Assembly (NCBI GenBank): GCA_001724265.1
Contig: MEDY01000187.1
Coordinates: 1-64,000 of the forward strand
Length of the DNA: 64,000 nucleotides
Reading direction: 5' to 3'
From: Rhizaria sp. SCN 62-66
Lineage: Eukaryota
Shown: positions 6,529-64,000 of the stretch, in pieces
Layout of the letters: each line of letters begins with the position of its first letter
Position numbering within the stretch: the stretch's first letter is position 1
The notes under the pieces: model-generated
Told to the model about the DNA's origin: nothing
Seen by the model: only the letters and a program-made list of their open reading frames with translations
Database searches by the model: none
Position numbers and translations under genes: made by a program

Positions 6529-6552
6529 AGAGAGAGAGAGAGAAGAGAGAGA
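6529..6552. repeat. Imperfect (GA)n microsatellite
   Basis: agagagagagagagaagagagaga in the long non-coding stretch 5273-7282. Confidence 0.8.
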
Positions 6553-7645: not shown

Positions 7646-8349
7646 CCTCTGTATGTTCAGTATATGATCAGCAAGAACGTGGCAAAGGCGGGGCACGAGA
7701 AGTCGGTGAGCGTGGCTTGGAACGGGAGCAAAAATGAGGGTCAGTTGACGGGATGCGCGCCACCGATGCAAGTGTAATAATAGATTACGAGTCACAAGCG
7801 AGTATACAATACGGAGCAATTCTCAGAAGTCTTATTCGGACAGTATATGATGCATGCGGGCAAGACGCATTTCTGCGCCCGTTTGGGGGAAAGCGATAAA
7901 TCATTTTAGCCCTTTTTCGGTCCACCATACCGCACAACTCTCTTTCCTCGACTTTCCTCCGAGTATCACTCATTTTCAAAATAAAAATAAAGTCAAATGG
8001 ATTTTATAACATATGTATTAGTATAAAAACTGTGCGATTTTGCTATAGCCCTTGAAAATGTATCTTGAATAATCCTACATGCGACAAGATGACCACGCGG
8101 GGAGCTAGAGACATGCATTTTGTTGTTTTCTTGATGACCAATAAGTGAGTTCGCAATAATAATTGGAAACAGATGAAACAAGACACTTTCCAACATATAA
8201 TATCAGCATTTCAACGCGATTGAAGACACGTTTATCTATTTGTTAATTATAACTTAAAAAATAATTGTGACCACGTCACTCGGCCCGACTCAGGCTCATC
8301 ATACATTATCAAAGCCCCTCACTTGTTTGCACCCGTCCAAACGCTTCGC

Positions 8350-12813: not shown

Positions 12814-13397
12814 GGCGGAAAAGAGTGCCGGAAAGCCCGGGGAGAGACGGGGCGCCGATGAGGCCCTTGGCGCGGGGCGGGGGGCTCGCGGGAACGGGGG
12901 AGGGTGAGGGGCAACCACAAGCGGATCTCAGCCAACGGAAAAACAACCTTAGTGTCTCTGCGCCAACGTTAAATGAAAAGAATTAAGAATGTTGGGTTAG
13001 ATCAGCACTAATTCTTACTGAGTTACCATATTAAATCTCAACCAACTATGATTTCACTCTGAAGCAGTCATTGCAGACTGTCGCTGACGTGGGCCAAGAG
13101 GAGAGCTCGACACTCTCGCGATCGACAAGACGACCGAGAAAGCACACCGACCGACAAGAGTCCGCTGCGCACCGGCCCTTCTCGAGCTCGACCCAACGCC
13201 TTGTCTCTTCATAACCACTCTTCTGGATTTGCATAACAACAACAAATCACAGTTTTCTAACTATTGCGTAAATTATAGACTCACCGTCGACCGCCTTCGT
13301 TGTCTCCCACCACTAGTTCAACCTCTCCACTCTGACTGGTTTGCGCCGCACCCCCCGTCCGCTCTGACCCGCGCCCAGCCTAGTCGTCGCCCTCGCC

Positions 13398-38593: not shown

Positions 38594-38644
<51 letters not shown>

Positions 38645-39195
38645 CTGCCGTTGTTCGCCGCGGCAGCGGCAGCGGCACGGGGGTTGAACACGTTGAGCTT
38701 CACCGGCGCCACCGACGCAGCCGCAGCCGCAGAGGCAGCAGCGGGAGCAGGCGCGGGCGCGGAAAGCGACGAGGACGTCGGCGCAGCGCCAGCGGCAGCC
38801 GGGGCGGTGGAGAGGGGTTTGACGGGCGCGATAGGGCTAGGGCTCGCGGCGGCTGTGCCCGTCGCGGTCTTGGTGGGCGTCAGCACGGGGGCCACAAGCG
38901 GAGTCCCGGCGCCGGAAGCGGCTGCAGCCGGGGGCTTCGCGGCGGTGGTGCCGAAGCTGAACCCACCGGCGGGCTTGGCCGGGGCCAGTGCGGCGGCGGC
39001 AGGGGCAGCAGCAGCGGCAGGAGCAGCAGCGGGGGCTGCGGCGGCCGCGGTGGGGGCGAAAGTGAAGCCGCCAGCGGGCTTAGCAACGGAGGCACTGGCC
39101 GCGGGAGCGGCAGTTGTGGGTCCGAACGAGAAGCCGCCAGCGGGCTTGGCCGCGGCGCCAGCGGGGGCGGAGGCACCGCCGAAAGTGAAGTTCAT
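23854..39195 (-). CDS. Giant Nup188-like nucleoporin (~5063 aa) with N-terminal FxFG-type repeats; exons 39195-25802, 25651-23854
   Basis: N-terminal FTFG and GGFSFG repeats. MYYFTERAALLSLLQAIV...HFYHDAA and GPLQLAWA recall the Nup188/Nup205 N-terminal solenoid. AT-rich 150-nt GTACGT...TGTAG intron at 25652-25801. Ends in TAA. Confidence 0.6.
38587..38640 (-). repeat. (AGC)n coding trinucleotide repeat encoding poly-Ser
   Basis: Near-perfect ctg run on the plus strand; about 18 consecutive Ser in the nucleoporin ORF. Confidence 0.9.
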
Positions 39196-40058
39196 GTGTG
39201 GCGGGTGAGCGGAGTGCTCAGGGGCGCGGACAAAGGCGGGCTTTGTGTGTCAAGTAAGAGGAGCCGCAAACAGAAACAAACACCCGCGTGTGCGAGGCGT
39301 TACTAAATAAGCGTGGTCGCGCTGATCGGAGCGAGGAGCGCACAAGCTAGGCGCGAACGGTTGAGTCGGGGTTGACGCGGCGACAAGGCGGGAGGAAGCA
39401 CAAAGAGTGTTTAGAGACACAGGAGAGTGAGAGACAGTAAAAAAAATGGCGGACAAATACGGGGGCAACACCAGAATGCAATATAGGACCACGACCTGCA
39501 GTTGGAGCCTTAGGCGTGGTCTCTAGCTTCGAAGCTGTTTGCCAGCGGACAGATCAGTTGGGTGGTTGAAGGTCAATCTCATGCACGAGGCAACGAGCAA
39601 TAGTGCTGTGACACAACACCAATATAAAAAACACAACGGACTACCAGGTTCATGAACTTAAATCTCAAACCACTCACGGTTACCCTTCCGCAATCAAATT
39701 GGAGTGAACGAACTCCGACCTCGGTCCGCAGCGTTGACCGCGCACGGCTGGCGCGCCTGGTTCCTAAAAATCCAGTCAGGTCGGACCGATTGATCACTTT
39801 GACCACCCTCATCCGCAATAATACGATCGTCAATAAAATCAAAAGGGGTGTCTTAGGACATATAACGTTTTATTTGCTATATTTATTGACTTACGTGCTC
39901 ACTCGTGCTAATCTTTCTGTACATCTCACTCCTCCCCCGCAATTCCATCGCCACAGGTTTGCTTGACCAGACCAGACTCTCGCCGCCACACCATAGCTCA
40001 TCGTCCTCTCGCTTGTAAGCGACCCCACTACGGCACGAGAGCCGACTGCTCTGGTGCT

Positions 40059-43000
40059 ATGCTCTTCTCAGGTGCTGTGGCTACAAACCCTCACGGCCCT
40101 CCGCTGCCGCCTGCAGACAGCGCAGCTCCGGTCCCTGCGCCCACTTCATCGTCCTCGTCTTCTCTCTCCGCCACCGCGGCCACAACATCGCCTCATGCAA
40201 CAACGACATCGCCAGACGTCTCCACACCTCACTCACGCATGGCGAAGCCCCACGCGACAGCTGCCGACGCTTCTGCTGCAGAGACTGCTGCGCGGTATTC
40301 CCCGGCGGCCCTGTGGCGCCGCGCGTCGCGCTATGTCCGGGCGACGCCCATCTTCCAGTTCTACTCCTACCTCTACCACCGCCGCCCGCGGCTGCTGCTC
40401 GCCTCTATCCTCGTTAACTACGCGCTGCCCATTGCCATGGAGGCGCTCCCGTGGTTCCTTTCCCTCCGCAAGCTCGCCTCGGCGCTGCGGTCGACGCGCA
40501 ACGCGCTGCAGCACGACGTCGTCGCAGCGCGCCCGCTCTCGCAGACGGCAATGGCGGCATACGCGCTCATGGCGCTCGCGCACACGGCGATCCAGACGAC
40601 GGAGAACACCCTGCGCAACCGGGTTGACTACGAGCTCCGCCTCGTCGTTCGCAGGCTCGTGCTCGAGAAAGTCGTATTTTCCGAGCTGGGCGCGCTCCAG
40701 AGGTCCTACGTGCGCGCATTCAACGAGACGGTCAACCCCGTGCTGCTTGAGGCGCGCATCTCGCTTGATCTGTACGATACGCTGTATTTGTTCAACTTTT
40801 TGATCCCGAATATCCTCCGCGGCTCAGTGGCAGTGATGCAGACCTTCAGCGAGCTGCTCACGCTTCCGCCGCCAGTCAACGCCAACAACAACACTGGCAT
40901 TGGCTCGAGTGCAAGTAACGCGAATGCGAGCTTGCGTGCTCATCGTGTTGTCCCAGGCTTTTCTTCACAGCAACAACCACAGCCACAACAAGCTCCAGCA
41001 GCGACAGCAGAAGTCACAACAACAGTGACAGCTGACACACCGCAGTCACAATCGTCGTCGTCATCGTCGTCTTTGCTCAAGTCTTTGCAAGCGCAATCAC
41101 AACAGCCACAAGTCCCGGCGATACAATCACAGTCACACGTTCTGGCCTCACCGTCACAGGTTCCGTCGCCGCCGCAGCTCGCGTCGCCGGCGGGCGAGCT
41201 GCTGCCCCTGCGGGCGGGCATCTGGGCGGCGCCCGCGACGCTGATTCGGCCCCTCGTCATCGGCGTGCTGGGCGAGGTCGTTGACTCTGTGCGCGCGCGC
41301 TACGGCCGCGACGCGCGCACTACGGCCGCGCAGGCCACCGACGCCGCCATGGGGCAGGTGCTTGCCGACGCCGTAGACGGGCTCGCGGAAGTGCAGGTAT
41401 GTCTAATGGACTCTCGCAGTGAGGATTGTCACGTACCATATTAGAACTCCATGTTATTGCTTATTGTCTATATCACTTGTGTAGGGAATATTTTCTGTTC
41501 ATTTCAACTTTATTTTTGCTGATTTATCCCTTCTTTTATAAACTTAGGCGAACAATCTGCAGGAGCACATCCTGTCGGTGATGGACCGCGTCTCTGTCGC
41601 GGATGTCAGCAACGCCCACGGCCTCCGCGCGGCGGCAGACCGCGCCGTGCAGAACTACGCCTCGCGCGGCGTGTTTGACCTGCTGAGCGAGCTCTGGGTT
41701 ACGCAGAGCGTGATGAAGGAGCACGGCATCGACCACGAGGCGTACCGCAAGCTGGCGCTCGACGTTGGCGCGGTAACCGGCACGGTGCGCAAGCTGTACA
41801 ATCAGTGCCTGCAGGTAAAGAGCGTGTTTGAGTCGCAGACGCGGCTGATGACGCTGCTGGGGATGCCCTCGTTTCAGCACGAGGAGGACCGGCACGCCTG
41901 GCGCAAGAGGCTGCAACTGAAGCATAAGACGGAATCACGCGCAGAAAGTGTTCCTAATAGTGCCAACGATGACGCGGATGATTGTGGCAATGATGATACC
42001 ATCGTCGATTTCGAGGTTCTGACGATCGGTCGGCTTAACTTCGCGTTCCCCCGCATGCCCACGGTCACTTCCGACCCCGACAAGGCCGACCGCAACTTGG
42101 CCAAGGAAGCGCGCAAAGCTCACTTGTACGCTTTATCTCTTGATGATAGCGACGGCGTTGACAAAATCACCCATAACACCGATCTCCCGGCTGCTGACTC
42201 GGAATCAGACACAGAACCCGAGACTGAGGCCGACAACAACAAAGCTGACAACTCTATCGTCGATAACACTGGTTCCAACAATGTTACAAGTAGCAAGCGC
42301 CAGCGGCAGCGGCGGCGGCTTGCACTGTGCATCAACGGTGTCCCGCCCACCTCCATCGCATCGTCACCAGCCTCTTCGTCACTGGCTCAGACACCTCTCC
42401 AGGCACGGTCGGCTCGACGCGACCCGCTAGAGTTCCGCCGCGGCCGCGCATACGCCGTCATGGGCGCCAACCGCAGTGGCAAGTCGACGCTTGTTAAGAT
42501 TATTACTCGCCTTATTGCGCCACTGCCTCTTGACGCTATCTCAGACGCACGTCTCATTGCAGCGACTCCTGAGAATGTTGCCTGCGGTACCAATGCTACT
42601 GCCGCAGGCGATCACCTCGAGTTCGACTCCGCTTTTGCCCCCGCTTTGTCCCGCTATCCGCTGCTGCTTAACGGCCGGCCCTTCGCCTCAGTCCCGCGGC
42701 GCGCGTGGCGGCGCGCGTTGTCCTATGTTAGCCAGCGGCCGTACCTCTTCCCGGGCACGGTCGAAGACAACATTCGCTGCGGACTCCGCGGCAAGACGCG
42801 GGCCGAGGTGGCGCTGGCGGCCGAGATGGCGGGGCTGCTGCTCAGCAATAACGACAATGACAACGACGGCGACGACGCTGGCGATAACAACCACCACAAC
42901 GCCGACAATGGTCAAGAGGCGAGTCGCATGTCTGATGGCTCTGCGGCTGTTTCTGCTGGTGGCGCCAATGGGGTCGTCACTGATGATCAGAGCGCCTCTA

Positions 43001-44656: not shown

Positions 44657-46046
44657 TTACTGCGCCCCGCCCGCCGCGGGCTCGAGCCGCTCCTCGTGCC
44701 TGAGCGCGCTGATGAATGAGTCAGCGGCCTTCTTGTTGGACTTGCCCAGCGCCATGCCCTTGATGGGCTTCTTGGCGGCCAGCGACTGCTGCTGCTGCGC
44801 CAGCATCGCGCCTTCGTGTTGCTGCCGCTGCACCTGCTCGGACCGCAGCGCGGTCACGGCCGCCGCAGCCACGCTGCTCGCTGCCGTCGCCGCGGCCGCG
44901 GACTGCGCGTATTGCTGCTGCTGCTGGGACGGCTGATGGTGCTGCAGCTGCTGCTGGCGGTCGCCGCCGTCGTCGCCGTGCACGCCCGCGGCGCCCGCAG
45001 CGGCCGCGGCCTCGTACTCCGCGTCCTCGGGGAAGAGCGCAGCGTACGGGTTGACCTCCTCCTGGTCCGTGGAGCCAAACCCGCGGTAGTCGTTGCCGCT
45101 GCCCAGCCCGCCGTCGTAGCCCTCGCGGCCGGACGCGCCCGCCTCACGTAGCTGGTCCTTGCGCCTGTCGATCTCTTCCGCGCGCGCCTGCATGATGCGC
45201 TCGACTTCCTGAGAGCGGTGTTGATGAACATAGAGGAAAACAGGACATACAAGATGTGAGGGATTGATCGTCAAACGACACAGATAGGTACGTCCATGCT
45301 ATAGGGGTAATATGAAAGCAAATTAACTATTATGAACACATATTATAAATGCATTACCACAAAACCTACCTGCATGAGCGACTTTTGGTTGATTTTCTGG
45401 AGACGCTCCTCGTGCGAGTCCATTTCGAGGAACGAGTGTACCTGCTGCACCGTCAGCGGCTCCTTGTACCCGCTCGTGATCACCTCGTCAAACGCAAAGA
45501 AGATGTTGAAGGCCGACTGCGTGACAAGCTCGGGGGAGGGGCAATCGCCACACTCCTCTGTGACGAGCGCGCAAAGCAGGCGCAGCGTGTCGAGGTCCTC
45601 CATGATGTCACTGTTCTTGTTCGTGATGAGCAGCACGACGACTTCGTCGAGGTTCTGGTACACGTAACGCACTTGGTCTGTCTCGATGAACGTGTGCTGA
45701 GAAGAGGCGTCCAGGAGCTTAGGGAAAGCCTGCGAGGAGGAAAGCAAAGCAAAGCAAAGCAAAGATTCAACCACACACGGTACACTAAGTGAGATTTCAT
45801 ATTGCGGATCGTCATGTGGACGAGTGCTGTTGGAGTGTGGTAAATAATGTGAAATTTAATACCGTTTAAAAACACGCCGGATGATCAACAATATGAATAC
45901 ATTGACGTAGAGAGTGGTTTGTTGGGATCTGGGCGGACCTGAAGCAGCGACTCGATGCGAACCTTAGGCATCGGGATAAACTGGCGCGAGAAGAGCACAG
46001 CATTCTTGCGACCCTTCTCCAGAATAGAAGCGGCAAGGACGACCAT
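44657..46046 (-). CDS. ARCN1: Coatomer delta subunit (longin domain + helix, no mu-homology domain), ~339 aa; exons 46046-45939, 45729-45370, 45208-44657
   Basis: MVVLAASI...SRQF...RIESLLQAFPKL...QHTFIETDQVRYVYQ...LLITNKNSDIMEDLDTLRL...FAFDEVITSGYKE...EMDSHEERL and KGMALGK match delta-COP. Two phase-0 introns. Confidence 0.92.
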
Positions 46047-46742: not shown

Positions 46743-49700
46743 TCAATTGCTGTTCTCCGTGCCCCCTGCCGGCTCACACAGCGTCAGCGCGGGCCCCAGC
46801 GTCACCTTGAGCCTCTGGTGCATGGCTGCGAGCCCGTCCGGCGCGCCCTCCCTGCTCCAGTCGCCCTGGTACCCGCGGTACGCGTGCTGCTGGTGCGCCT
46901 CGATCGCGCCGCGCAGCGACAGGTGTGCCGGCTGCTGCGCCCACAGCGAGCCCGCCAGCCCGCCGTGCAGCGCCGTCATCGCCCACGCGCGCGTCGCGTC
47001 CGCGGCCAGCGGGTCCCGGTCCTCCGGAGCCCAGCCCACGCCGAGCACCTGTTCACCGATCACAGCGTTGCCCCCACCAGCCGCCCCGGCCGCCCCAGTC
47101 GCGACAGCGGAGGCGGAGGCAGCAGCAGCAGTTGGGTCGGCGGTGGACTTGCGGACGGGCGCGGTGGCAAACAGGGCGCTGTTGCGCGCGGCAGCCGCGT
47201 TGCCGTAGATCTGACCGCCATTTCCGCCACTAGCGGCATTGGTGGGCGAGGTGACCGGTGACTCGAGCCCGGCCGCGGCGGCCGCGGCGGCTGCGGCCGC
47301 GGCTGCGGCGGCCGCGGCGTGCGCGCTGCCCGTGCCCGCGGCGACGGACGCGCGGTGTGCGGCGAACTGGCGCAGCTGCTGCCGCCGCAGCAGAATGGCG
47401 TCCTGGCGGCGCAGGTGGCGGTCCTGCGAGAGCACGCTCGTGTCGAGGCCCATGGGCGTCGCGAGGGTCAGGCTGCAGTTGTAATGCGGCGGGAGCAGGT
47501 TGAGCCGCTTCAAGTGCGTGTGCAGGGCGGGGAAGCGCGTCTCATCGAACACGTCCTCCAGGTAGTATCCCAGCACCGAGCTCATGTCGCTGCTGATGTG
47601 GTGGCCGCCGCCGCCGCCGCCGCTGCTGCCATGCCCGCTGCCGCCGTGGCCGCCGGCCCCCTTGGCCTTGTCCTTGCCGCCCTTGTCCTTGCTGCCGGCC
47701 GCGGCGCTGCTGCCGCCTTTCTTGCCGTCGTTGCCGGGGTGGTTCTGCAGGTTGTGGTGCTCCCGCGCGGCCGCGAGCTCCGCTCTGACCGCCGCGGCCT
47801 CGGCCTTAAGCTTCGAGATCTCCCCCTTGGCGATCATGAGCTCTGTGCGCAGACCGACCTTCTCGCGCAGGATCGCCGCCGCGTCGTCGCGGTGGCGCCG
47901 GGCCGCGGCCTCGGCAAAGGCCGTCGCGTTGTTGGCCTCGCGCACCTGGGCCTCGGTGTAGGCGCGCATCAGCTCCAGGTCAGACCTCGGGGCGGCCTAC
48001 TCGCCAGGCGAGAATGGAACGAATAAAATATGGCATATGAGAACAAAGTAGGATACAAATATTCATGAAAAATAAAGAGATATAATACAGAAGTTAAAAC
48101 TCAATCGATATGCAATGTTTTAGAGTTATCTAAGAGAATCTATAGGATATGTACTCGTTTATGTTTGCGACGTACCAGTGCGGCGACTTGCGGCGAGACG
48201 AAGGACGCGATCGCGGCGCGCAGCTTGACCTGGTCGAGCAGCTGCGCGTCGCGGTTGCCACCGCCGGGCCCGCCGGAGGCCAGCGCGGCGGGGTTGCTCT
48301 GGAACGTGGGTGGGACGGCGTGCGAGAACGAGCGCGTGCGCGCGCTGTTATTATGATAGCTACTCATCGTCGCTGCACTGCTCGGAGACAGCGCCGCAGC
48401 AGTGCTGCTGCCGTCGCTACTGGCCGAGTCCGACGGGCCCAGCGACGGCGACGGGGACACGTGCGACAACACGTTCCCGCGGCGCTGGTGGGAGGCGCCC
48501 GTTGCGGCGCCAACGGCAGCGCTGCGGGAGCCGCCGGGCGTCCCGGGGCCGGGGCCAGGCCCGGGGCTGGGGCTGGCCGCGAGCGCGGGCGTGGACGCCG
48601 TGGGGGGCGTCAAGGTCCCGGTCGCGGGGCCGAGGCTGGGGATCGCAGTCGGCACCGGCGTCGTCGTCGCGTTCGCGGCCGCGGTCGCGAGAGACAGCGA
48701 GGCGAGGGACACGGAGACGCTCTTGGCGGAGACGGAGGTGCTGGCGGGGGGCTGCTGCTTGCGGAACCAGGTCTTGGCCGCCGAGTCTGCGGTGCTCGTG
48801 CTGGCGTCAGAGTCAGAAACAGGGGAGTCAGCGATGGTATTGCGAATGCTATTGCACGCGCTTGCGAGGGCGAGAGTGATCGTAATGCGGTCGCTGTCGC
48901 TGACTGCAGCGGGAATCGAGCTGAGACACGGGTATGCAGGCTTAGCGTTGGCGCTGACAAAAGCAGCAGTGCTCTCCAGAGCATCGGCACTAGCATCCGC
49001 CGCACTAGCAGCAGTCGCACCGTTGTTGCTGCCGCTGCTGCCCCCGTGCTCTGCGACAGTCGGCAGTTTCCCCCCGGCACCGAGTCCAGCGGAGCCCGTG
49101 GCGGCGCCCAGGACGCCCGCGGCCGCCGCCAAGGGGCCTACGCCGCCGCGGCGGCCTTTGGTGCCGAGCCCGGCGCGCTCGCGCTCGACCCCGCGCGCGC
49201 GCGCCTCCCTGGCGGCCAGCGACTCCGAGGTAAGCTCGAACAGCGTCGGCCGCCGGTTGCCGAGCACGGCGTCGGCGCGCTTCAGCAGCGAGCACTGCAG
49301 CCACGGGCCCGGCGCGGACGCGGCGGCAGACGCCACAGCGGCCGCGGCCGCAGCAGCCGCGGCCGAGCCGGCGGTCGTGACGGGAGCAACGCCAGCGGCG
49401 GCGGCGGCGGCGGCGGCGGTTTCACTGGTAGAGACCGCGGGGACCGTGGGGCGGACGGCGACCGCGACGGGCCACAGCATTCCGGGCGGCAGAGTGACCG
49501 TGAGCGCCATGAAGGCGTGCGGCGAGTCGACCGCGTTCAGGAAGGTAAGCCGCCCGCCGTCGCGGACGCTGTTAGGCCGCGACGGCTTGGATTCCGGAGG
49601 CGCGGCGTGGGCGAACACGACGGGAGTGGTGCGGACGCTGCCGCCGGCGCCAGCACCAGCGCCAGCGGAGCCGGCGCCGCCGTGGACCCCGCTGCCGCTG

Positions 49701-52482
49701 CTGTGTGCCGCCCCGCTGGCGGAGTGAGTCGCAGCGCCGGCGAGGCCCGCAGCGCTGCCGCCGGCGCCGGAGTGCGAGTGAGCGCCCGCGGAGGGCGCGG
49801 TGTGGCTGACGGTCTTGACCGTGGCCATGATCAGCCCCACGGCGGGGGCGTAGCCAAGCAGCGGCGTGCCGAGGCCGAGGCTGCGCGGGAGGGCGATCTT
49901 GGTTATGCCGCCGATGTCTCTCCGCGGGTCTTTGCCCGCGCCCGCCTCTTTACTATGGAGCGCGCGCAGGTCGATGAGCTGCAGCGACCAGTCGAGCTGC
50001 CGCGACGCCGCCAGCACCACGAGTTGGCGGCTGCGGTAGCGGCTGATGAGAGGGCGCGCGCTGCGGGAATCTAAGGGGGTACTTACGGTCGCAGATGAAA
50101 ATCCAGTAACTTTTGTCATGGAAGATAATGAAGGCAAATAGACCGAACGACTCGCGTTACGAGTCGCCACTGCATGGACGTCGCCGCTGTCCCTGCTATC
50201 ACTTGAGCTTTTGCTGTCAGTCTCGCCAGCGTTGTCATCGTCGTCATCAGCAGACTCGAACGCAGTGCCTTGCGTGGCGTCCTGAGTCCACAGCAGCGCC
50301 GAGCCGCGGCTCGCACCGGCCAGGGCAACTGCCGCCACCACAGCGCCATACACGACATCACTACCCGCATCAGCATCGTCAGCAGCTGCAGCTGCAGGAG
50401 ATAAAGCACGCATCGAAGAAGCGCCACGGAGACGCGGGTCCCAGACCCTCAGCACGCCGTCGCCGTAGGTGACTGCAAGCAGCGCGCCGCAGGGGGACCA
50501 CGCCATCGCGGCCGCGGGGCCGGACGGGTGCGACTCCCATTGTAACAAGGCGGGGGACGCTGTCGGGACTTGGCACAGGAGCGCAAGGAGTGTGTTTGTG
50601 TCGATATCCCAGACGCCGACAACGCCGCTCGTCGCGGTCACGGTGCTTGCTGAGGACGTATTCACCGTTGACGCAGCGGTCGCAGCGCTGATCGCGGCGG
50701 CTGCGGGGGCCGGTGCGGGCGCGGGGCAGGGGCACGCCACGGTCTTGTAGCTCACGGCGACCAGCGACGGGATGTACGGGTGCGGCGACAGCAGATCGGG
50801 GGTCAAGTGCCTTAGCTCCAGCGACGATAGCGCATGCTGCGGCGAGTTCGCAACATTTGCACTGGAGCTTGCAGTCGGCAAGTGAAGTGCAGCCCTCAGC
50901 GCGGCGTTGATGCCCGCAGACACAGGTGACACGCAGCCCACAACCGTCGCACTGGCACAGGCACTCGTACTGGTACTGGTACCGGAGCTTTCAGCAGCGA
51001 CGGACTCTAAATGGGCGCTTAGCCCGAGATCGAATGCCTTGAGGTTGCCGTCGCTGAGGACTGCCCAGACGCGCCTGTGCGCGCCGAGCGCGGAGTCAGC
51101 GGGGCCCGTGGCCAGGGCCAGCACGGCCTCTTTCGCGCCGTAGTGACCGTGACCGTGACCGTGAGCGTGGGCGCGAGGGGGGCTGGAGCTGCTGCTTACC
51201 GCAGCAGCGGAGCTCGAGTTCGAGCTGTTGTCGGAGTTTGTCCTCGCGTTATGAGTAAACGCATGGAACTTAAACGGCTGTAACGCCACCGTCTTGACAG
51301 CTTCACTAGAGCTTGTGCTGGAGTTGTTGTTGTTGCTGGGTGCCACAGTTGTGCTGTTTTCGGCGAGTTTGTACGTGGCCGTCTCTAGGGGTGCCGCGAC
51401 AATGTAAGGGCCGAGCGAGCTCACAGCCCACGACGCGGTGCTGGGGGCGCTGCCGCCGCCACCACTTCCATCAGCCGATGCAGAGGACGGTGCCAGCACC
51501 AGCGCGGGCGACTCCGAGCGAAGCGGGATGCCGGCCAGCGCGATGCCGGCAACGCCGCTGCTACTGCTCACGGCAACCGGCGACACGGGCGCAGGCACGA
51601 CGCCGCTGCCCGTGCTGGAGGCTGATGCTGAGGCCGAGGCTGAGACTGAGGTTGCGACGGAGGCTGCGGAAGTGACCGTGAGCGGAAGCGAGAGCGGGTG
51701 GCCATGGGTGTCGACGAAGACGGCCCGGGCGCGGTCCTCGGACGCGAACAGCGGCCTCAGCGACACGCCTTCGGGCGCGACCAGCGACTGCAGCTGCGCC
51801 TGTTGTTGCGCCTGTTGTTGCGCCTGCAACTGCAACTGCGACGGCAGCTGTGACGGCAACGGGGAGACAGGGGAGCTGGACACAGCGGCCGGACCGCTTG
51901 AAACAGCAGCAGGCGCCGCAACAGCAGCGTTTGCAGAGCTAACTGGAGCTGCTACCGAGCTGAGACTGGTGACAGCGCTAGACGTGACGTTAGAGCTTGT
52001 GCTACCAGTACTGGTCACACTTGAAGCCGCAATTGTGGCCGTTGTGTTGGTGGTCGCGAGGGGGTTGGGCGTGTTGCGGAAGATGGCGAGCGCCGCGGGG
52101 CGGGCGCCGGATGGCTTGATGACGCCTGCAGCATCCGGCTTCGCACCCGCGGACTCAGCGGCCTCGGCGCCAGTGGCGGGCGCGGCTGCTGAGGACGATG
52201 AGGCAGCGGTAGCAGCAGGCGCGGGCGTGGACGCGGCGGCGGGCGCGGGGGGAATGCCAAGCTTGCGCTGTTCCTCAGCGCAGCCAAAACGGCTCACCCA
52301 CTATGGATAAGCGTGCAAACACATCAATATTATCAATATCATGTTATTATGGTGAGTTAGAACATCGCGAAAGGTCAGGAGTGCTCCACATGCGTTGGAG
52401 GGAGGTTACAGAGAGACCGTTGAAGTCAGCTTAGGATGCAGAAACATACCATGTTGACACGCGATGACTTGGGAGAGGACAT
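46743..52482 (-). CDS. Coronin-like WD40 protein with C-terminal coiled coil, ~1803 aa; exons 52482-52450, 52300-48176, 47996-46743
   Basis: HPYIPSLVAVS, VGVWDIDT, AMAWSPCGALLAVTYGDGVLRVWDPR, LQLIDLR, then coiled coil LRTELMIAKGEISKLKAEAAAVRAEL. Phase-0 introns of 149 and 179 nt. Exon 1 is inferred. Ends in TGA. Confidence 0.6.
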
Positions 52483-53156: not shown

Positions 53157-56100
53157 ATGTCATCCGGTGCCGCCGCTGGGGACCTCCTCAGAGCGCCCTC
53201 GGCCAACACACTGCGCTACTTCTGGGGCCGCCCCGGCGCGCTCGTCAACGGCTCCGTCCAGGCCTCGGGCGGCAAACCCGTGAAGCCGGTGGACAACAAG
53301 CAACGCGTTAAGGACGAAATGTGGCTCAACCGCGAGATCTCCAAGGGCCAGGATATTGTGGACCGCAGCAACCAGAAGGCCACGACGCCCGGCGTCCGCG
53401 CCCTCGAGTCGTGCCCGCCGCCGACGCGCCTGCACCCGCAGTTCCTCCTCTCGGGCTACCTTGCCGTCCGCAACACGGGCGACTGGTCTCGCAAGTGGAC
53501 GCTGCGCTACTGCCTGCTGACGACGCACCACCTGTACATCTTCAAGCGCGCGCCCCCCGCGCTATCGGGCTTCGACGCCGCCGCGGGCGCCGAGGACGCC
53601 TCGGGTCTCACGCCCGGCGCGCCCGGCTCCGCCGCCGCCGCCTCCTCCTCCGCCGCCGCCGCGAGCAGCAACAGCAACAACAGCAACGGCGGCGTCGCCG
53701 GCACGCCCATGCGCCTGCGCGTCCCCTCCTCGTCGCTCAACTCGCCGCTGCAGCCGTCGTCGCCCACGTCAACCTTCTCCGCCGCCGCCTCGCCCTCCGC
53801 CGCCGCGGTCCCCGGCTCCTGCGCCGCCGCCGCCGCCCTGTCCGGCGCCGCGTCCCCGTCGGTCGCGTCGCCATACGCGCCGTCGACTAACCGCGCCCCC
53901 TCGTCCGCTGTAGCAACATCTCTCGGCTTCGCCCCGCGCGCGCTGCCCTTCTCCCCGACGACGGCACCGATCGCCTACACATCGCCGCCAGCGTACCCGA
54001 ACCTGGCCGCGGACCCGGCGTCGGAGCTCTTCGGCGAATACCGCGATCGTGTGCCCGTGGACGACCGGCTCGCCGTCATCGACGTCACGGCCTCGGGCGC
54101 TGCCGAGCCCCTCGTCTTCCAGCTCTCGCACCCCGACAAGCACATGACGCTCTTCCGCGCCGTCAACGCGCGTCAGTGCGGGCTGTGGACCAGCGTGCTG
54201 CGCACCGCGGCCCTCATGACTTCGCACGTCTTCGCCGGTCAACCCCTGTCGCGGCCCTTGGACCACGCCGCCCCGGTCTGCGCGCCCGCCGCTCTGACCG
54301 CGCTCGCCGCCGCCTCGGGCTACGCGCAGCCCGCGCCGGGCCCCGCTGGCGCTGGCTCTGCGGCCTCTGGTGCCGCCACCTCGTCGTCCTCGGCCTCTGG
54401 CGCCCCCGCACCCGCCGCTGCCGCTGTGGCGCCGCTGGTGGGCTACCCCGTACTGCCCTGGCCCAGCCAGTGGCCCGCATCCTGGCTCACCTCCAACGCC
54501 TCCTGGTTCCCGCAGGTCCGTCCAATCGTCAATGTGGATATATTGTTTATATTTTTCTTTTGTTTTACGTTTTGTATTTAAAGTGTATTTTCATATTTGT
54601 GCCCATCGCTCACTATATCCTGATATTTTCTCTTCCTTTCTCACTGCCTTTGACTCCACATCCCAGGCTCCTCACGTCAATGCGTTGATCCCTGCATACT
54701 GCGACCGCTCCACCGAGGTCGTCAACGTCCTCTACCTCCCGGCGCCGTCCTCCCCGACGTGTTCCGCGGCCGCCAGCCCCACCGCGGGCCTCGGCACGGT
54801 CATCAGCGGCGGCGCCGAGTGGACCGACCGCGTCTACGCCGTCCTCCCGTCCCGCACCACCGCCGCCACGGCGTCCTCCGCCAGCGCCAGCGCCGGCAGC
54901 AAGCGCGGCGCCGCGGCGGCCGCGTCCGCGCCCCGCGGCGTGGTGACGGTGTCACTGGGCGACGGCGGCCAGGTGGAGCTCGACGTGCACGCACTGTGGG
55001 TTCACCACCAGACCGCCGTGTCGGCCGGGCAGTGCGAGACGCTGCCCACGGTCCTGGCCGAGGGCACCGAAGTGAAGCCGCCCGTCGGCTGCACCGTCGA
55101 GAGCGAGCGCAAGTTCGTGCACGCCAACTTCGCCGTCATGGACTCGTTCTACAACGCTGACATGCACCTCGCGTGGTCCTTCGAGACCGTCACTCTGGCC
55201 TGCGCCCCCTGCGCCCCCGCCGCCCCCGCTGCTGCCGCGGTTCCTGTCTCTGCGCCTGCGGCTGCGCCCGCGGCGTCGACTGCAGCCGCAGAGACGGGCG
55301 ACGTGGTGTGCGGGCCGAATGCCGCCGTCGTCTCCGCGGTTGAGCACTCGCTGCTCGCCGTCGTGTACACACAGCCGCCCGCGGCGCGCGTCGCACTGGG
55401 CCTCGTCTTCACACTGCTCGCGCACTGCTCCATTACGCCCGAGCTCACCGCCACCGGCGGGCTCAGCGGCCGCGCGCTGCTGCAAGCAGCCACGCTTCTG
55501 CTGGCCACCGCCATCGGCGCTGTGATCGCCGTCGACGCGCTGCGCACCCCGCCCAAGCCCTGCAAGGCGCCCGCCAGTGTCTCCAATAAGCCCGTCGCCG
55601 CTGCCGCCAAGGCCCCCGTCGCCGCCGCCGCCGTCGCCTCCGCTGCCCTATCTACGCCTGCCGCGGCCACTGCTGCGGCTAGAGTGAGCGAGCCCGTGAC
55701 CGTGCACTTGCTGACGCTCATCCCGGTGCGCCTGAGCGACCGCCACTCGCCGTCGGGTCCCACGCTGCTCAACGGCGCGCCGCTCGACGCGCGCGAGTGG
55801 CCGCCGCTGCCGCGCACCACGGTCTTCTGCACTGCCGCCGCGGGCGCGACGGTCGGCGCCTCTGCCGGCGCGCGCCGCGCGGCTTACGCGTCCTCTCTCG
55901 CCGGCAGCGGCGGCGCCGCAGCCAACGGCGCGGCAGGCGGCGATGATGCTCCAGCAGGCCATGGGCGTGCGCTCGGTCGTCCCGCTCGCACCCGCCACGG
56001 CCTCTTCCCCGCGCGCGGGCCTCCTCTCCGCCTCTGGCGGCGCCGGCGGCTCCCATGCTGCACTGGGCGGTCTGTCTGGGCTCGGCGTCGCCGTCCCCGG

Positions 56101-57283
56101 CGGCGGCAGCGCGGGCGACGCAACCGCGAGACCCGTGGCCCGCGGCGCCAGCGCCGACCGCAACGACGCCTTCTCCGACAACGACGAGTCGGGCGACGAG
56201 GACACCGGCAGCGACCTCGAACTCACCGGCGGCGCCGCTGCCGGCGCGGGCACGGGCGCGGGCGCTAGATCCGGCCACACGCGCAGCAGCAGAGGCAGCA
56301 CCGACGCGTCGGCCGCCACCGCGCACTCCGCCGCTGCGGCCGCCGCGACCGCTGCCGCCGCGGCCGACGGATCGATCCCGTCCGCGGCCGCCGCCAACGC
56401 CGCCGCGGCGGCCGCGACGGCGCCGGCCGTGGTGCGCGAGGACCCTAACTGCGGCAACGTGTACTTTGCTCCCTGGGGTGCGTGGTGCCAGTCAGATTAC
56501 CGGCCGCTAGTGCTGCGCGGGCCTGACTACCTGACCAACAAGAAGAAGCCCAAGGTGCCCGCGACACCTTTCCGGTTCGAGTCGTGCCACTGCGAGATCG
56601 TGGCGGTGCGCAAGATGCGCGCGCACGACGCCGCGCGCCGCAACAGCTACTTCAACCAGCAGCTCAACATGATCAAGGAGCACGGCCGCGAGGCTGAGTG
56701 GGCGCTGGGCACGCCGCTCAAGTTTATGCTGGTCAACTTTATGGTGCCCGGGTCGCCGCAGTACAACTTCGTCATGTACTTCCGCAACCCGTACATCAGC
56801 CCGTCGCCGTACCCTGAGCACGCACATGGGCTGGCCCCGGGCAGCTTCACGCCCACGGTCAACTACCCTGAGGGCGACCCCTTCTTCGACCTCATGGACC
56901 GCTTCGTTAACGGCACCGACGAGTTCCGCACGAGCCGCTTCAAGTACATCCCCAACGTCGCCGTAGGCAGCTGGATCGTCAAGCGCGGCGTCGGCCAGAC
57001 GCCCGTCATCCTCGGCAACAAGCTCAAACAGCGCTACTACCAGGACGCGAACAAGCAGTACATGGAGATCGACGTCGACGTGTCGTCGTCCTCGGTCGCT
57101 GGCTCCGTGCTCAAGCTCGTCAAGGGCTACGCCAAGACGCTCGAGATCGACCTCAACTTCCTGCTCGAGCCGCACGCCAACGATGAGCTGCCCGAGGCGC
57201 TATGGGGCGGCGTCCGCATTTGCAACGTCGACCTGCTCAACATCAAGATTTCCGAGGACGAAATCGAGGAGAACGACCAGTGA
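53157..57283 (+). CDS. PH-domain + hydrophobic hairpin + EDR2 C-terminal (DUF1336) protein; intron 54516-54666; +1 frame break near 55900-55940
   Basis: PH motif LLSGYLAVRNTGDWSRKWTLRYCLLTTHHLYIFK...CGLWTSVLR. EDR2-C motifs LRGPDYLTNKKK, VNFMVPG, FRTSRFKYIPNVAVGSWIVKRGVG, YMEIDVDVSSS, ELPEALWG. Spliced length is 3n+1. Ends in TGA. Confidence 0.8.
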
Positions 57284-58351
57284 GCGGCCGGCCCACGCGC
57301 TGTAGCGTCATCAGCGGCAGTGGCAGTTGCGGTGAGCAGTGACGACTGCGAGCAGTGACTGTGTTGATTGACGGACTGCTGTTTTTTTGTTTTTGTTTAC
57401 ATGTGTTCATTTTTCATATTTTTTGACTTTGTTTTAGTGAAAGAAACATTGACCTATTTTGTTGTTGCTGCTGTTTGCTTGTTCATTTGCACATGTTTAT
57501 GTCTTAAGAAATGCCAGCAAAAATCTTTTATTTGAACTTGGTTTCTTTTGTGTTGTGTGCTTTGGTTGATGCTGAGGTGCGTGTCCACGAAGAACGAGAT
57601 GAATAGATCCACATCACTAGAGGATGTAGGTAATTGTTATTGTTTTTGTCTTTGTAAATTGTTAGCAACATCAACATCATATTCATCGTTGTCGTCAACC
57701 TCGAGTGTTGAAATGTGTTGTTGCTCTCACGATAAGCCATTATGACCTGCGGAATTGCACACGCATTCGGTAAATTCTTTTATTTTGTTCTTTCGGCAAC
57801 CGTGTTTCTTTTCACATATCTTTTTAATACATTTAATCACTGTTAAAATATCTCTGGCGTTCATGTATGTTTGTCTGGCCGCAAGCTAGATGCTTGCTGT
57901 ATTGGGTCGCTGCTGATAAGAGCTACTGACCTCCAGCGTTGCGGCCAGTACCGATATACTCAACGTTGCATTCATTTATATTGTGCAGGATGTGTCCCGT
58001 TAAGTTGAGACCGTAGTGCTATGATTTCAAGTCACAACCCTCGTCAGTAACCAGATGTTATCTTACACTTCGAGTTCATACACGTGTGATTTGACAGATT
58101 TTGCGATTTCGAAACGTACCTCTCGAAAAAGGTGCGATTTTGACTGCATGCCAGCATTATCTATGTCTTTAAATGACTCCTCACGCATACACTATGTCTT
58201 TTCATGTTTGTGTCCTCCATCATACAGTGTGCTTTTTCTTCAGCCCACCCAGTCTTGTGTCAGTTTGAGATTGTTTATATCTCGCTCAAAAGTCCGTCAA
58301 TAGAGCTTTACTACGTGCAAGCGCGTGTCCGTTTTACGACACACCTGGATA

Positions 58352-61300
58352 ATGTCAAATGATTCATCTGACGACGATTTTCTTAGTGTTAGTCCTGCGC
58401 TTCAGAAGCGGTTAGATGCGGTCCAGCAGCAGGTCAACGAGCGCCTTCTTTCCGAGGCTCGTGCACGCCAAGACGCTGCCGACGCCTCTGCCGCTCGCAC
58501 CCATGCCGCTGCCTTACGTAAAAACGAACGTTATTTGAAGAAGCATGGGAAGCAGCCTTCTGGCGTGAGTCAAAACGCTGTCCTTGCCGCAGCGGCCACT
58601 TCTGCGGCACCCATTGCAAGGCAACGGAAAGAGTTCGTCTTAGACCCCACCACGAACAAATTTTACCGCACGACCGTCACATCACTGCCACCAAGTAGTT
58701 CGCTTGCGGGCAATTGCGTCCTCGTTGCTACAGCTAACGACAGCCTTGCGATCAGCGAGCCTCCCGCCGCCCCGTCTGCAGTGCCCATCACGACCGCGCT
58801 CGCAGCTCGGCGGTGCGCTTCGCAGTGTGCTTCCCAGGCTTCATCTCTCTCAACGAGCGGCTCCGCGACTGCGAGGCCACAGTACGGCCCCATCGCGGTT
58901 GCCGTGCATTCGGCCGTCGCGACGCCGCTGAACCTGGCTGCGCCGGGAACCGGCACGCTGCCCGTGCTCGCCGCCACCGTCGCCACCGTTGCCGCCGCCG
59001 CCGCCGCCGACCGCAACCACGCCCATCACGCCCACACTCGAGCTGACATCGCCAGCAGGCTCACCCCGCCTGCTTCACCGCCGCACGCGGCGCCGCGCCT
59101 GTCAGCTGCCGGCGCCGCAGCGTTTGAGCGCACGACTGCGCGCGCCGCTGCCTGCGGGCAGGCGTTTGGCTCCGCGCTCTGGTTCCCCGCGCCGCGCCCG
59201 TGGCCGCAGCGGCCGACAGGGCTTCAAGTTGCGCCGGCGACAGGTGCGTCCGCTTTTATAACGATCTTCCACCATATATTGAATGACTTGCACGTTTATG
59301 TGATTCTCTACGGCTCTGCCCTTGGTGTTGCATCTTTCGTTTACATACCAGCGTGCCGATGTGCACAATGATTACTGATTGTGCTTCACGGACTCATTTC
59401 ACATTTTATCCAACGTTTTAACATCGTTTTTCCTTGTATAGATGTGATTGTGCGCGCGCTTGGTTTCAACCTGACTGCAACACCATCCGACAGCCATGTT
59501 GGTCACAGCAACACCACGCTGCTTAATAGCCGTGGTCATCGAAGCATGTGCGCCATTGATACTACTCATACGGTGGCTCACACTGAAACTGCGTCGCCGT
59601 CGACACTTACAGTGTCATTTCTTGGTCAATCTGCCGATTTCTCTGTGTTGCGCAAGCCCTTACAAATGCACCAAGCATCTGCGAGCTTTAGTAACGCTAA
59701 TAGTGTATTAGTAATCCCTGATTTGTCGCTGTTGCAGACTCACCCGGTCCGTCGGCTGCTGAACAACAGCACGGCTGCTCGAAGTCATAGTAATATTGGC
59801 CGCGATAACAGTCAGCAGTCGCACGGTCAGCGCTCTCACCCTCAGCAGTTGCACAGTGAACTCTCTCAACGCTCGCACGGTCCGCACGGCGTGCGCGTGC
59901 ACTCACGAGGCGGCGCCGCTCATAGTCATTCACAAAGGTAGAGTGCTCGCCACGCGGAGGCAGACAGCGCAGACTCTGACGATGCCGATGAACAGGAGCG
60001 GGAGCGAGAGTTCTACCAACAGCACTTCGCGACGCCGGAGGTTCCGATTTGCTCCGTTTTGCACTTGTCCAACAGTGTACTATGTACATTTCAATCCTAC
60101 AGCACCACTTGCACTCACCCGCTGAATCAACGAACTGATGAAGAACAGTCGCGAAACTCAAACAACAATAACAATCCTACTAACAATAACAATAATAACC
60201 GCAATCGTAACTCGAACACTCCGAGTGGTAACATAACGCAAGCACCTGCTGCATCAGCTAATCTAGCTGGCCTCGACACGCGGTACAGCTGGGACGTGCC
60301 CTCCGCGGCCGCGCGGCGCCGGGTGCTGCTGGCGTGGCGCCGCGAGAGCGCGATCGCGAGCGACCTGGACAACGCCGGTGGAGCACGTGCTGCTAACGCT
60401 GAGGCTCGGAGTCGTCACAGTGGCGCCACACAGACTACGGACACTCCGAGCGGCAGCATGACTGCCGCGGAGAGTGTCGCAGGGTCTGCATCTTCAGCAG
60501 CGTTGAAGCCATTGCTTTCGTCTTTGTCATCGCAGTCGCGGGTGCTTACGACGAGTCGGCTCTTGTCGACTGTCGCCGAGCTTGGTGCTGCGGACTCCGT
60601 GGCTGCTCTTGACTTAAACGATGCCAACTTGGCCTCGACATGTGTCGACATGAGCAAGGATGATGATGTGTCGCCCCCACACGCAGTCGACGCAACGTAC
60701 GACATGAGCGTGACCCCGACATTTGAGTTTCTTCCTCTACGTCGCAGTGAGTTTTTTTCGAACAGTCGGCGCCATCAGTCTTGCGGGGCTCCGAGCAACG
60801 CCGCGAACGTTCTCGAACATCGTCTTCCACAGTCCGACCCGTTACCCGTGATTATGCGCGCATTCACTGGCGAATTCACGCCCGATGGCACTGGTGGCTG
60901 GGTCGAGATCATTACTCCGACAACAACCCCACCTGCATCACGGGGGGCCCATGCCACGGACGCTGCTCCCACAGTCACTGCGATGCCGCCGACCTGGTCG
61001 ATCGTCGCTCGCGTCCCTTTCCCCGGCCGCGCAGTCGCAGACGCCGTGATTGCGTGGCCGCACACTGCGCGCGCGGCAGCGCTTGTGCGGTGGGCCGAGG
61101 GGGTGATCGCCGCCCGCAGTGCTAAGTGTCGCATCCATGGCCTCAATTCGTGCAGCAGCGACGGTACATGTGACTGTGAGCTGCGGTGGGCTGTGCTGCG
61201 TAAATGGGGAGACAAACACGGAGTAGCGGTAAACTCTTCTGTGTCATGTGACTCCCATTCGCACACTAAGTCTGCGGTTACCACGGCGGACAGCACGATC

Positions 61301-63181
61301 GACGTGTTTGTCGCGGCTGACAAAGCTGTCTGTCACGTCCAGTGGCACAGTCAAACACCCACTACGACTTCACACAGCACTTCCCAGTCGCAACAGCAGC
61401 GCGGACAGCAGCGCCAGCCGCAACATCAGCAACGGCAACATCCGCAGCCGAGCCGCCGCCCCCGCGTCCGCACTCTCGCGCTGGCGGACAGCGCCGTCCT
61501 GCGCCTCGCGCCGGCCGCGCCGCAGACAAGGTGGCGCGGCTGCGTGCTCACAGCGCGGCGCGACGGCGCAGTGCAGCTCGTCGACCCGCGGGCACCGCCC
61601 GCAAGGCACCATGGCTCCGAGAAACCCAGTGCCGCGCTGAGTCAGGCGGGCGGTGCTGGTGCTGGTGCCGGCGCTGTTGTGGCGCATTTGGCGCAGTTGG
61701 GCGGCGCCGTGACGTGGCTACACGCGTTTGGCGAGGCCGACGCCACAGCGGCGTGCGCGCGTGCTGTGCTGGGAGGCGACTGCAGGCGAGGGCGACGTGC
61801 GGTGAAGCGCAGCAGCCATGGTCAGCAGCTTGGACACCATCGTGTGAGCCATCACGTGAGCGATTCCGAGAGCGACAGCGATGAACGCGATGGTGATATC
61901 GACTCCGACCGCGAGAATGAGTCCTGGTATGATGTGACAAAGGTTTATCGCGACAGTGACACACGCGCGACGCCACCATTTGCGTCAACACAGGCCACAC
62001 CAACCCCTAGCAGTGCATGCGATAGACTGAGCGGTGTCGGCAATCCACACTGGTTTGCTGCTGCGTCCACCGACGGCACTGTCTGCATTGGCGACATCCG
62101 TCGCGGTTCCTCGCCATTGGACAGCACCGCGAGCGCAATCGCCCCCACTCAATCCGAGCATATCACGCCGTCGTCGCCGCTCTGGGGGCTGGCGCGCGCT
62201 CCTACCGCCTCAGAGCGCGCGCAGTCGCAGCCGTCAGTGCTGTATTCGCTGCGCGGCCATCCCAGCTCCGTGCTGCCGTTGCGCGGTGCTGTGAACACGC
62301 GGGAGACGGCAGTGTTTCTGGGCGGTGGCGACGGCGTCGTGCGGGCGTGGGACGTGGCCACGGGGCTCTCCGTCGCTGAAGTGGCCGCGATTCCCGTGTC
62401 ATGGCTCTCGAGTAGCATGCAGCCTAAACCGAGTTTCATTGGAAGCAATGCACACAACAAAAGCGAGAGCTCCCGGACATCGCTATTTGGGAATGTTCCG
62501 ACAGATTCAGTGACTCTGGCACGTACACACCCGGCTCAAGCGTGGCAGCAGGCCCCGTCGCCTGCCGTCGTGCTCGACAACATTCGCACGGCCCCCTGGG
62601 CGTAGGGCCAGACATCGGACAGCGACAGACTTGGCACGATCGAGACTGGCACATGGTTGAACTCGAACAGCTCTCGCCACTGCCCAGTACACTCTACTGC
62701 TGCTGATGACCGACCCACTCGCGCTAGCAACGCTACAATGCATTCTTCGCATTCTTCACTTACGTGCCCCGGTTGCCGATTGGCTGTCGCAGCTGCTGAA
62801 GCTGAGTGCCGAGCTCGGGGACAGTGGGCGGGTGCGATTGGCCGTGTTATGAACACTCTTGCAACCACTGATGCAGATGCTGTGCGCACACAGATGAGCA
62901 TCAGTCGCAAAGACAAGGTCGCTGGTAAGAATGCAAGCGATGCGCCCAGTGACGACGTGACGCCACAATTTCAACCGCCGCGTGTCTCGTTTGCACTCGC
63001 GTGGGATCCCTCATGGCAAGGGCTGTTTGTGGCGCACGAGGTCGAGCACTGTGCAGTGTCGGTGCCCCCACGTGCGAGTGACCGCGCGAATGATCATCGC
63101 AACGGCGAGAGCGCAAGTGGAGCAACCACAGCTGTAGTGATGAAAGGTGGCATCTCTGCATTCCACTTTCCCGGACTTTGA
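58352..63181 (+). CDS. DCAF4/WDR21-like WD40 protein, ~1543 codons; exons 58352-59243, 59442-63181; in-frame TAG at 59939-59941 and 62603-62605
   Basis: N-terminal FVLDPTTNKFYR and WD40 motifs TARRDGAVQLVDPR, AASTDGTVCIGDIR, LRGHPSSVLPL...GGGDGVVRAWDV follow the DCAF4 order. Phase-1 intron 59244-59441 (GTGCGT...TATAG). ORFs 59381, 60059 and 62657 share one frame. Ends in TGA. Confidence 0.7.
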
Positions 63182-63463
63182 GTTCTTTTCAACGCATCAT
63201 GAAGTGATTTAAGACGAAATTAAAATCATATTTTATTCTTTACTTTAAAACAGCTATATTAGACGTGAAACATACTTAGAGTTGTCTCATAATGAGATAC
63301 ATAGTGACTCGCATATGATTGCAGCAAAATACACTCTTAAGCAATTAAGGAACAAACTCAAACAAAATCAAACTCAGTCTGGTTCAATTAGTGATCCCAA
63401 CGAAAATCAGAACAGATCAACATGACAAACTTATACTCGTTCAAAAAAGAAGCATTTAACAAC

Positions 63464-64000
63464 TTACTCGGCGGCGGGGTCAAGCGAGCCGAGAGCACGC
63501 ATGCTACCGTCACCGCACACCACGAGCACACTGATCGCGCCGTTCGCAGCGTTGGCGCAGACAACCTGCTTGACACCAAGGGGGAAGCCACCGCCGGCAG
63601 CGTGCGCCGCGAGCAGCGCCGCGAGGCCCGTCACACCAGACGCGTCCTTGCGCGTCGCCGAGCTCGAGCTCTCCTTGCTGGCGTCCTTGCCGGCGGCAGG
63701 GCCGTCCGCGAGAGAGGACACCGCGGCGGTTGCGTGCGTGTACACGTGCTGCAGACGCAGACCGGGGCCGATGGCGACACCGCTGTTCGCGAGGTACAAA
63801 GCCATGCTGACGCACTCATCGTCATCATCGCCGCCGTTGGCACCAGCAAGCGCAGCATCAACGACAGTCTGCACGGATAGCAAAGCCGCAGCAGTGGCGG
63901 CCCGTGTGGAAGAAGTCGACGTGGTGTTCTGCGCCGCGTTGGCACCGTCACCGCCGCTGCTGCCGCTGGATTTGTTGCGCTGCTGCGGCTGCTGCAGGTC
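63464..64000 (-). CDS. 3' end of a gene running off the window (possibly a beta-propeller C-terminus)
   Basis: Open, GC-rich frame from the window edge to TAA at 63464-63466; VLVVCGDGSMRAL looks like a WD40 strand pair. Confidence 0.6.
   Translation of the reverse strand, partial: DLQQPQQRNKSSGSSGGDGANAAQNTTSTSSTRAATAAALLSVQTVVDAALAGANGGDDDDECVSMALYLANSGVAIGPGLRLQHVYTHATAAVSSLADGPAAGKDASKESSSSATRKDASGVTGLAALLAAHAAGGGFPLGVKQVVCANAANGAISVLVVCGDGSMRALGSLDPAAE

Follow-up and report, generated by a model that had tools for sequence, protein, structure and literature searches.

We analysed the first 64,000 nt of contig MEDY01000187.1 (assembly GCA_001724265.1, Rhizaria sp. SCN 62-66), referred to below as the window, and examined three TAG codons that stand inside the long reading frames of two of its genes: two in G12 (TAG-1 and TAG-2) and one in G1 (TAG-3; Table 1). 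Our tentative reading, to which we would give somewhat less than an even chance, is that the organism decodes UAG at least part of the time, in an incipient or inefficient way; the three TAGs would then be rare sense or suppressed codons in the two least codon-biased genes. We favour decoding because the in-frame stops are TAG only, because a third TAG occurs in a second gene and because none of the supported gene ends is a TAG. A settled reassignment is not proposed, since the codon is far too rare. The claim of the initial annotation that UAG is a rare sense codon is therefore kept in part: the reproducible TAGs, the third TAG and the lack of TAG among 12 terminators speak for it, whilst the depletion of TAG and a TAG/TCG polymorphism between strains, both set out below, speak against it.

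The upstream intron of G12 (59244-59441, 198 nt) was found where the initial annotation had placed it, and the frame is open once it is spliced. On the plus strand, the open frame at 59372-63181 was interrupted by two stops only, TAG 59939-59941 and TAG 62603-62605; likewise, the spliced model of 1,544 codons contained no internal stops other than these two TAGs. Translation thus confirmed that the frame is broken solely at these sites, as had been claimed. The three same-frame open reading frames (ORFs) are of 189, 887 and 191 codons. In the other two frames of G12 there were 109 stops in 3,084 codons (3.5% per codon, ~1 per 28); an open flank of ~190 codons would occur by chance with p ~0.001, and G12 has two such flanks in phase with the 887-codon core. 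Because the other frames hold a stop every ~28 codons, the open flanks are not in phase with the core by chance. The composition was coding-like across both TAG-1 and TAG-2, again as initially described, and the stretch after TAG-1 is an acidic, coding-like run with coding-like position-specific GC.

Both interruptions recurred outside the window. A scan of metagenome contigs returned L001, a JGI contig from a separate assembly that matches the window without a single difference over 3,343 nt and carries both TAG-1 and TAG-2, and sequencing run X3 also reads TAG at the two sites. A related strain, sampled in study P3 by run X4 (DNA-like) and run X6 (polyA RNA), differs from the window by ~0.3-2%. 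Its X4 contig 59441-60259 keeps TAG-1 and differs only at 59483, at 60143 and by an 18-nt in-frame deletion (left out at 60164) in the Asn-rich repeat just after TAG-1. TAG-1 is thus common to two strains from different studies. For the sequence beyond TAG-2, a HMMER scan of 1.84 billion representatives gave self matches and one other protein, P0004, which is encoded in a relative by an ORF of 111 aa, on contigs that reach 21,025 nt, and is 57% identical (44/77 residues) to the G12 tail. Since the tail after TAG-2 is conserved in P0004, it is real, functional coding sequence. Scans of genome contigs and of viral contigs gave no match.

TAG-3 lay outside the original finding and turned up in the same window, as the one in-frame stop of G1, a 1,240-codon frame without a Pfam family. 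P0008, a variant of the G1 protein with a single substitution, shares with the window's ORF the start Met directly after TAG-3; because it begins there, the comparison suggests that TAG-3 is present in the second variant too. GC content at third codon positions (GC3) is lower in G1 (0.61) and G12 (0.63) than in any other gene of the window (0.67-0.91). The homologue searches, with G1 and with the read-through G12 and its shorter pieces, returned only the window's own ORF calls and, across the two genes, the generic WD40 protein P0009.

We counted stop codons in the 13 genes modelled in the window, which together have 16,676 codons. In-frame stops comprised three TAG, no TAA and no TGA and affected 2 of the 13 genes, which are small numbers. 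The 12 well-supported terminators were six TAA, six TGA and no TAG (Table 1); the end of G2 is backed by a near-complete Acetyltransf_CG match and that of G11 by a complete EDR2_C match. Normal use of TAG at gene ends elsewhere, which the initial annotation had set against its own proposal, was not seen in the window (0/12). The base after the terminator is G in 8 of the 12 (TAA-G in G2, G6 and G9; TGA-G in G3, G4, G10, G11 and G12), and the in-frame TAG-1, TAG-2 and TAG-3 are followed by A, G and T, respectively.

Three apparent gene ends were rejected in this count. TAG 41442-41444 and TAG 48140-48142 are each the first in-frame stop inside an intron (41397-41547 and 47997-48175, respectively), and in both cases splicing reopens the frame; TAA 14910, a candidate terminator of G4, belongs to a GTAAGT donor. 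Apparent terminal TAGs can be intronic, and ORF-based calls mislead on stop-codon use here.

Table 1. Positions of the G12 and G1 features, candidate and modelled introns, and gene terminators in the window
Feature	Position	Strand	Description
G12 exon 1	58352-59243	+	Start ATG 58352; holds motif FVLDPTTNKFYR
G12 intron 1 (intron 11 of 11 modelled)	59244-59441	+	198 nt, GTGCGT..TATAG, GC 0.41; one in-frame TGA at 59369
G12 exon 2	59442-63181	+	Begins with split codon; single frame; terminator TGA 63179-63181
TAG-1	59939-59941	+	CAA AGG TAG AGT GCT; ..SHSQR*SARHAEADS..; between N-terminal region and WD-like body
Asn-rich AAC/AAT repeat	60150-60215	+	Just after TAG-1; 18-nt in-frame length difference between strains
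WD40 unit	62240-62368	+	Single sequence-supported unit, LYSLRGHPSS..GDGVVRAWDVATGL; matches designed WD repeat protein Ika8, E 1.5e-7
TAG-2	62603-62605	+	TGG GCG TAG GGC CAG; ..TAPWA*GQTSDS..; polymorphic between strains
C-terminal tail after TAG-2	62954-63172	+	PRVSFALAWDPSWQGLFVAHEVE .. AVVMKGGISAFHFP; conserved in P0004
G1	142-3864	-	1,240-codon frame, one in-frame stop; no Pfam family; 3′ end uncertain
TAG-3	2428-2430	-	GAT GTT TAG TGC TGT, inside G1
Candidate intron at TAG-1	59938-60102		165 nt; donor GTAGAG; GC 0.55; acceptor TTTCAATCCTACAG
Candidate intron at TAG-2	62602-62670		69 nt; donor GTAGGG; GC 0.57
Candidate intron at TAG-3	Starts 2 nt upstream of TAG-3		69 nt; GTTTAG..TCTCAG; GC 0.48; in G1
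Modelled intron 1	14909-15059		
Modelled intron 2	15417-15616		
Modelled intron 3	21585-21809		
Modelled intron 4	22455-22620		
Modelled intron 5	25652-25801		
Modelled intron 6	41397-41547		
Modelled intron 7	45209-45369		
Modelled intron 8	45730-45938		
Modelled intron 9	47997-48175		
Modelled intron 10	54516-54666		
TAA terminators			G2, G5, G6, G7, G9, G13
TGA terminators			G3, G4, G8, G10, G11, G12

The TAGs could instead lie inside small in-frame introns that are spliced from the RNA (59938-60102, 62602-62670 and a 69-nt stretch in G1), an explanation that the initial annotation had raised for the two G12 sites and that we consider improbable. The three candidates are all GT..AG with lengths that are multiples of three, genuine introns of such lengths occur in the window (150, 198 and 225 nt), and the 165-nt candidate is of a length covered by the modelled introns and ends in a good acceptor (TTTCAATCCTACAG). 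Moreover, the P0004 ORF is bounded upstream and, as its contigs reach 21 kb, this bound is not a contig end; the relative therefore has some interruption before the tail. The introns of the window nonetheless look different from the candidates. G stands at donor position +5 in 11/11 modelled introns, and the eight that were measured have GC 0.32-0.43 and 150-225 nt, whereas the candidates have GC 0.55, 0.57 and 0.48 and the donors GTAGAG, GTAGGG and GTTTAG, with a length of no more than 69 nt in two cases. We required a length of 150-225 nt, GC ≤0.43, G at donor +5 and a pyrimidine-rich 3′ end, a combination present in 8/8 reference introns. None of the 2,385 GT..AG candidates spanning TAG-1 (846), TAG-2 (683) or TAG-3 (856) had all four properties; judged by its sequence features, the intron explanation fails on composition, size and donor, and the coding-like run after TAG-1, with its acidic residues and position-specific GC, argues in the same direction. 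The polyA-RNA contig of X6 at 62409-62679 is contiguous through the 69-nt stretch at TAG-2. This is a weak point, as the strain reads TCG there and the run holds unspliced sequence: another X6 contig (58901-59260) extends 17 nt into the intron 59244-59441, which indicates some unspliced RNA or DNA in the run. X6 depth was 0 in 59348-59931 and 0.21 in 59932-60515; there is no RNA cover at TAG-1, and the run is uninformative there either way. Under the standard code, site-specific programmed readthrough, or separate expression of the pieces from starts such as Met 60458, would also account for a frame that continues past each TAG, and the stretches behind the TAGs had been annotated by gene callers as ORFs of their own (P0002, P0003 and P0005). 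We regard this as very improbable. Known leaky readthrough contexts include UAG-CARYYA; the three 3′ contexts here (TAG AGT GCT, TAG GGC CAG and TAG TGC TGT) share no motif and are not known to match a leaky context. The intergenic spacers of the window are AT-rich and hundreds of bases long, and no such AT-rich, promoter-like gap precedes the downstream pieces; a separate C-terminal piece after TAG-2 would be a fragment of 147-191 aa without a domain of its own.

An alternative that is nearly as probable as decoding is that UAG is an ordinary stop, the three TAGs being nonsense mutations that have become fixed or still segregate. G12 would then be a young unitary pseudogene, in which TAG-1 arose before the strains split and TAG-2 arose later, from TCG, in the lineage of the window; the premature stop in G1 would be independent, and the downstream frames would still be open since little time has passed. 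Several results fit this explanation and weigh against decoding of UAG. Position 62604 is changed from A to C (TCG, Ser) in both the X4 contig 62077-63668 and the X6 contig 62409-62679, and such a TAG/TCG polymorphism is the expected look of a recent nonsense allele. From position-specific composition, ~150 TAGs were expected and 3 observed, a ~50-fold depletion that is stop-codon-like and excludes a mature reassignment of the kind known from the rhizarian 'exLh' or Iotanema spirale; by gene, there were 3 against ~34 expected in G1 and G12 and 0 against ~116 in the other 11 genes, with neighbouring sense codons (TTG, TCG, TGG, TAC, CAG and others) at 0.4-2× expectation. The lack of TAG among 12 terminators, a small sample, has a probability of 0.07 if normal TAG use is 20% and of 0.28 if it is 10%. 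About half of the nonsense mutations in G1 and G12 would in any case give TAG (~49% for random nonsense in their codon usage), so that three out of three has p ~0.12. The strain differences showed no third-position excess in G12 or G10 by hand count (in G12 the 11 listed sites are 5 first, 2 second and 4 third positions, which looks neutral) and thus give no sign of purifying selection downstream of TAG-1. Among the ~15 strain substitutions downstream of TAG-1, ~1 new stop would be expected under neutrality and one was seen. G1 and G12 also have the lowest GC3 in the window and are orphans without a Pfam family, so they may be dispensable. No tRNA and no Rfam match was found in the 64-kb window, and no orthologue aligned over any TAG site in the homologue searches. 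Finally, known UAG-only codes use UAG freely: exLh has 384 in-frame UAGs in 71 genes (Panek et al. 2017, PMC5304391), compared with 3 in 13 genes (16,676 codons) here. Nonsense alleles sit less easily with other observations. Two of 13 genes would be hit, both by TAG alone, frameshifts are absent from their ~4.6 kb and 3.7 kb of reading frame, and the sole indel between the strains is in frame. TAG-1 and probably TAG-3 are common to variants from different studies and years. The low GC3 of the two genes cannot be the product of prolonged decay, given how small the number of stops is; and there remain the 0/12 terminators and the tail beyond TAG-2 conserved in the relative. The probability left over is reserved for other causes.

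Under incipient decoding, ribosomes would get past UAG by means of a CUA-anticodon tRNA, through poor recognition of UAG by eRF1, or both. The window itself holds no eRF1 gene. The codon would have been purged from gene ends, which use UAA and UGA only, and would have started to turn up within genes of low expression and weak constraint, a state that would correspond to an incipient or inefficient 'ambiguous intermediate'. As to the amino acid, the initial annotation had leaned towards Gln, for which we obtained no support: between strains, the TAG sites show no exchange other than TAG/TCG. This one difference makes Ser the only amino acid for which there is a hint, and the hint is weak. UAG could be read as serine by a tRNA-Ser whose anticodon had mutated from CGA to CUA, in which case the TAG/TCG difference would be synonymous. 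Seryl-tRNA synthetase does not read the anticodon, so this route is mechanistically easy, but we think it unlikely to be the actual one. If UAG is decoded as we suggest, the organism would be a natural example of an early ambiguous stage of code change, which theories postulate and which, to our knowledge, has not been seen so far. If UAG were in addition serine, a nuclear UAG=Ser code would have been found for the first time, and no earlier reassignment would have been caught at a codon usage so close to zero. Nonsense alleles, on the other hand, would make the finding an ordinary one.

The G12 protein is an orphan, rich in low-complexity inserts, and had initially been called DCAF4-like, with WD40 repeats downstream of TAG-1. 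Its language-model look-alikes are DCAF4 clusters: the nearest Atlas clusters are DCAF4 (score 0.94, 173 shared features) and DCAF4-like 1 (score 0.93, 171), with a recognition value for the DCAF4 clusters of 1689, under the 2300 mark. G12 gave no match to PF23761 (Beta-prop_DCAF4) at E up to 10, the gathering score not being reached, and its pieces matched no Pfam family at E up to 10. The WD40 score in Pfam was 17 bits against a cut-off of 27. One WD40 unit is clear from the Ika8 match (Table 1), whilst further repeats are without sequence support. An AF2 single-sequence model of 60830-63178 had a pLDDT of 37.9 and is unusable as fold evidence, and a PDB search with exon 1 gave nothing meaningful. 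The N-terminal F-x-x-D-P..K-x-Y-R motif and the C-terminal β-strand end are features that we take to resemble DCAF4. Set against the DCAF4 clusters, then, G12 shares the Atlas placement and one clear WD40 unit and differs in being ~1,544 aa, filled with low-complexity sequence, where the cluster proteins have ~400-450 aa. 'DCAF4-like' would accordingly be a lead only.

The window has GC of 0.6-0.75 within genes and is AT-rich between them. It is eukaryotic, because spliceosomal introns are present. Its source is an uncultured GC-rich protist, known here from metagenome contigs alone; an Atlas comparison with the GABA-aminotransferase exon added no taxonomic clue. Several studies have runs from bioreactors, wastewater and activated sludge in which the stretch 58300-63300 was matched. 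Runs X1-X11, from seven studies of 2015-2025 (bioreactor, wastewater, activated sludge and microbial fuel cell), contain the same organism or close strains, a tally that includes unchecked small shares; the detailed alignment covered four of the runs. The GC-rich lineage is present in at least four studies (P1, P2, P3 and P5), so that material is obtainable.

Splicing out AT-rich GT..AG introns reopens long frames in G4, G6 (a class-III aminotransferase), G7, G8, G9 and G10. The intron set is uniform, with lengths of 150-225 nt and GC of 0.32-0.43 (measured on the eight reference introns, whose 3′ ends are pyrimidine-rich), and donors are mostly GTNCGY (GTACGT, GTACGC, GTGCGT, GTCCGT and others). 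The intron GC contrasts sharply with the exon GC of 0.6-0.75. Gene prediction can make use of this signature, which may also help to place the lineage; prokaryote-style, ORF-based calls on such contigs split G12 and G1, which gave rise to P0002, P0003 and P0005.

Other genes of the window showed features of their own. G7 (23854-39249, minus strand) is giant and Ala/Ser-rich, with 5,082 codons when spliced and a GC3 of 0.90; its intron at 25652-25801 is 150 nt, AT-rich, in frame and stop-free, and translates as hydrophobic junk within the ORF. G4 (13368-15773, plus strand) has three exons, of which exon 2 has a weak match to RsfS, a ribosomal silencing factor (E 0.0034), and the N-terminal exon upstream of it is long and Ala-rich. 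The ~3 kb of AT-rich sequence at 5273-8349 is either a long spacer or a set of orphan genes: its six X-masked frames had no Pfam match, and a 179-codon ORF within it (7283-7822, minus strand) has a presequence-like N-terminus. Between X4 and the window there were 10 differences in 475 nt of coding G10 (49692-50166) compared with 7 in 2,211 nt of largely intergenic sequence (56665-58876). The excess in G10 could arise because its low-complexity coding sequence is diversifying or evolving in a relaxed way, or because paralogues contributed reads.

Compared with a unitary pseudogene or a premature-stop polymorphism, the locus is alike in having a long frame broken by point nonsense, with one site polymorphic between strains, and differs in that there are no frameshifts, that the stops are TAG only, that two genes in 64 kb are affected and that two of the three stops are common to variants of different studies. 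A GC-rich contig with many genes and AT-rich introns of 150-225 nt, such as this one, is unlike ciliate genomes. Phyllopharyngean and other ciliates include UAG-only reassignments (PMC11687900 and PMC10553269), in which UAG has parted from UAA in meaning, as it would have here. Few nuclear codes are known to have reassigned UAG alone (exLh, Iotanema and some ciliates), and all of these were found with the codon in common use already; our literature search, limited in reach, returned no wastewater eukaryote with a reassigned UAG that fits. In Iotanema spirale, where UAG is Gln, 81/81 transcripts in which the first stop after the region of homology was UAG were judged to use it as sense, and a change in the GTS motif of eRF1 is reported (PMC5304391). 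That system resembles ours in that UAG alone would be reassigned and UAA kept as a stop, and differs in the amino acid, as nothing here points to Gln. The rhizarian exLh, where UAG is Leu, is an insect-associated cercozoan known from transcripts, whereas the present organism is known from metagenome contigs; in exLh conserved columns of alignments settled the amino acid, whereas no orthologue covers a TAG site here. In some other respects the two are alike (PMC5304391). The in-frame stops of exLh are UAG only and its terminators are UAA (56) and UGA (15), with no UAG, as the supported gene ends in the window are six TAA and six TGA; and high expression goes with fewer UAGs in exLh genes, just as UAG is absent from the strongly codon-biased genes here.

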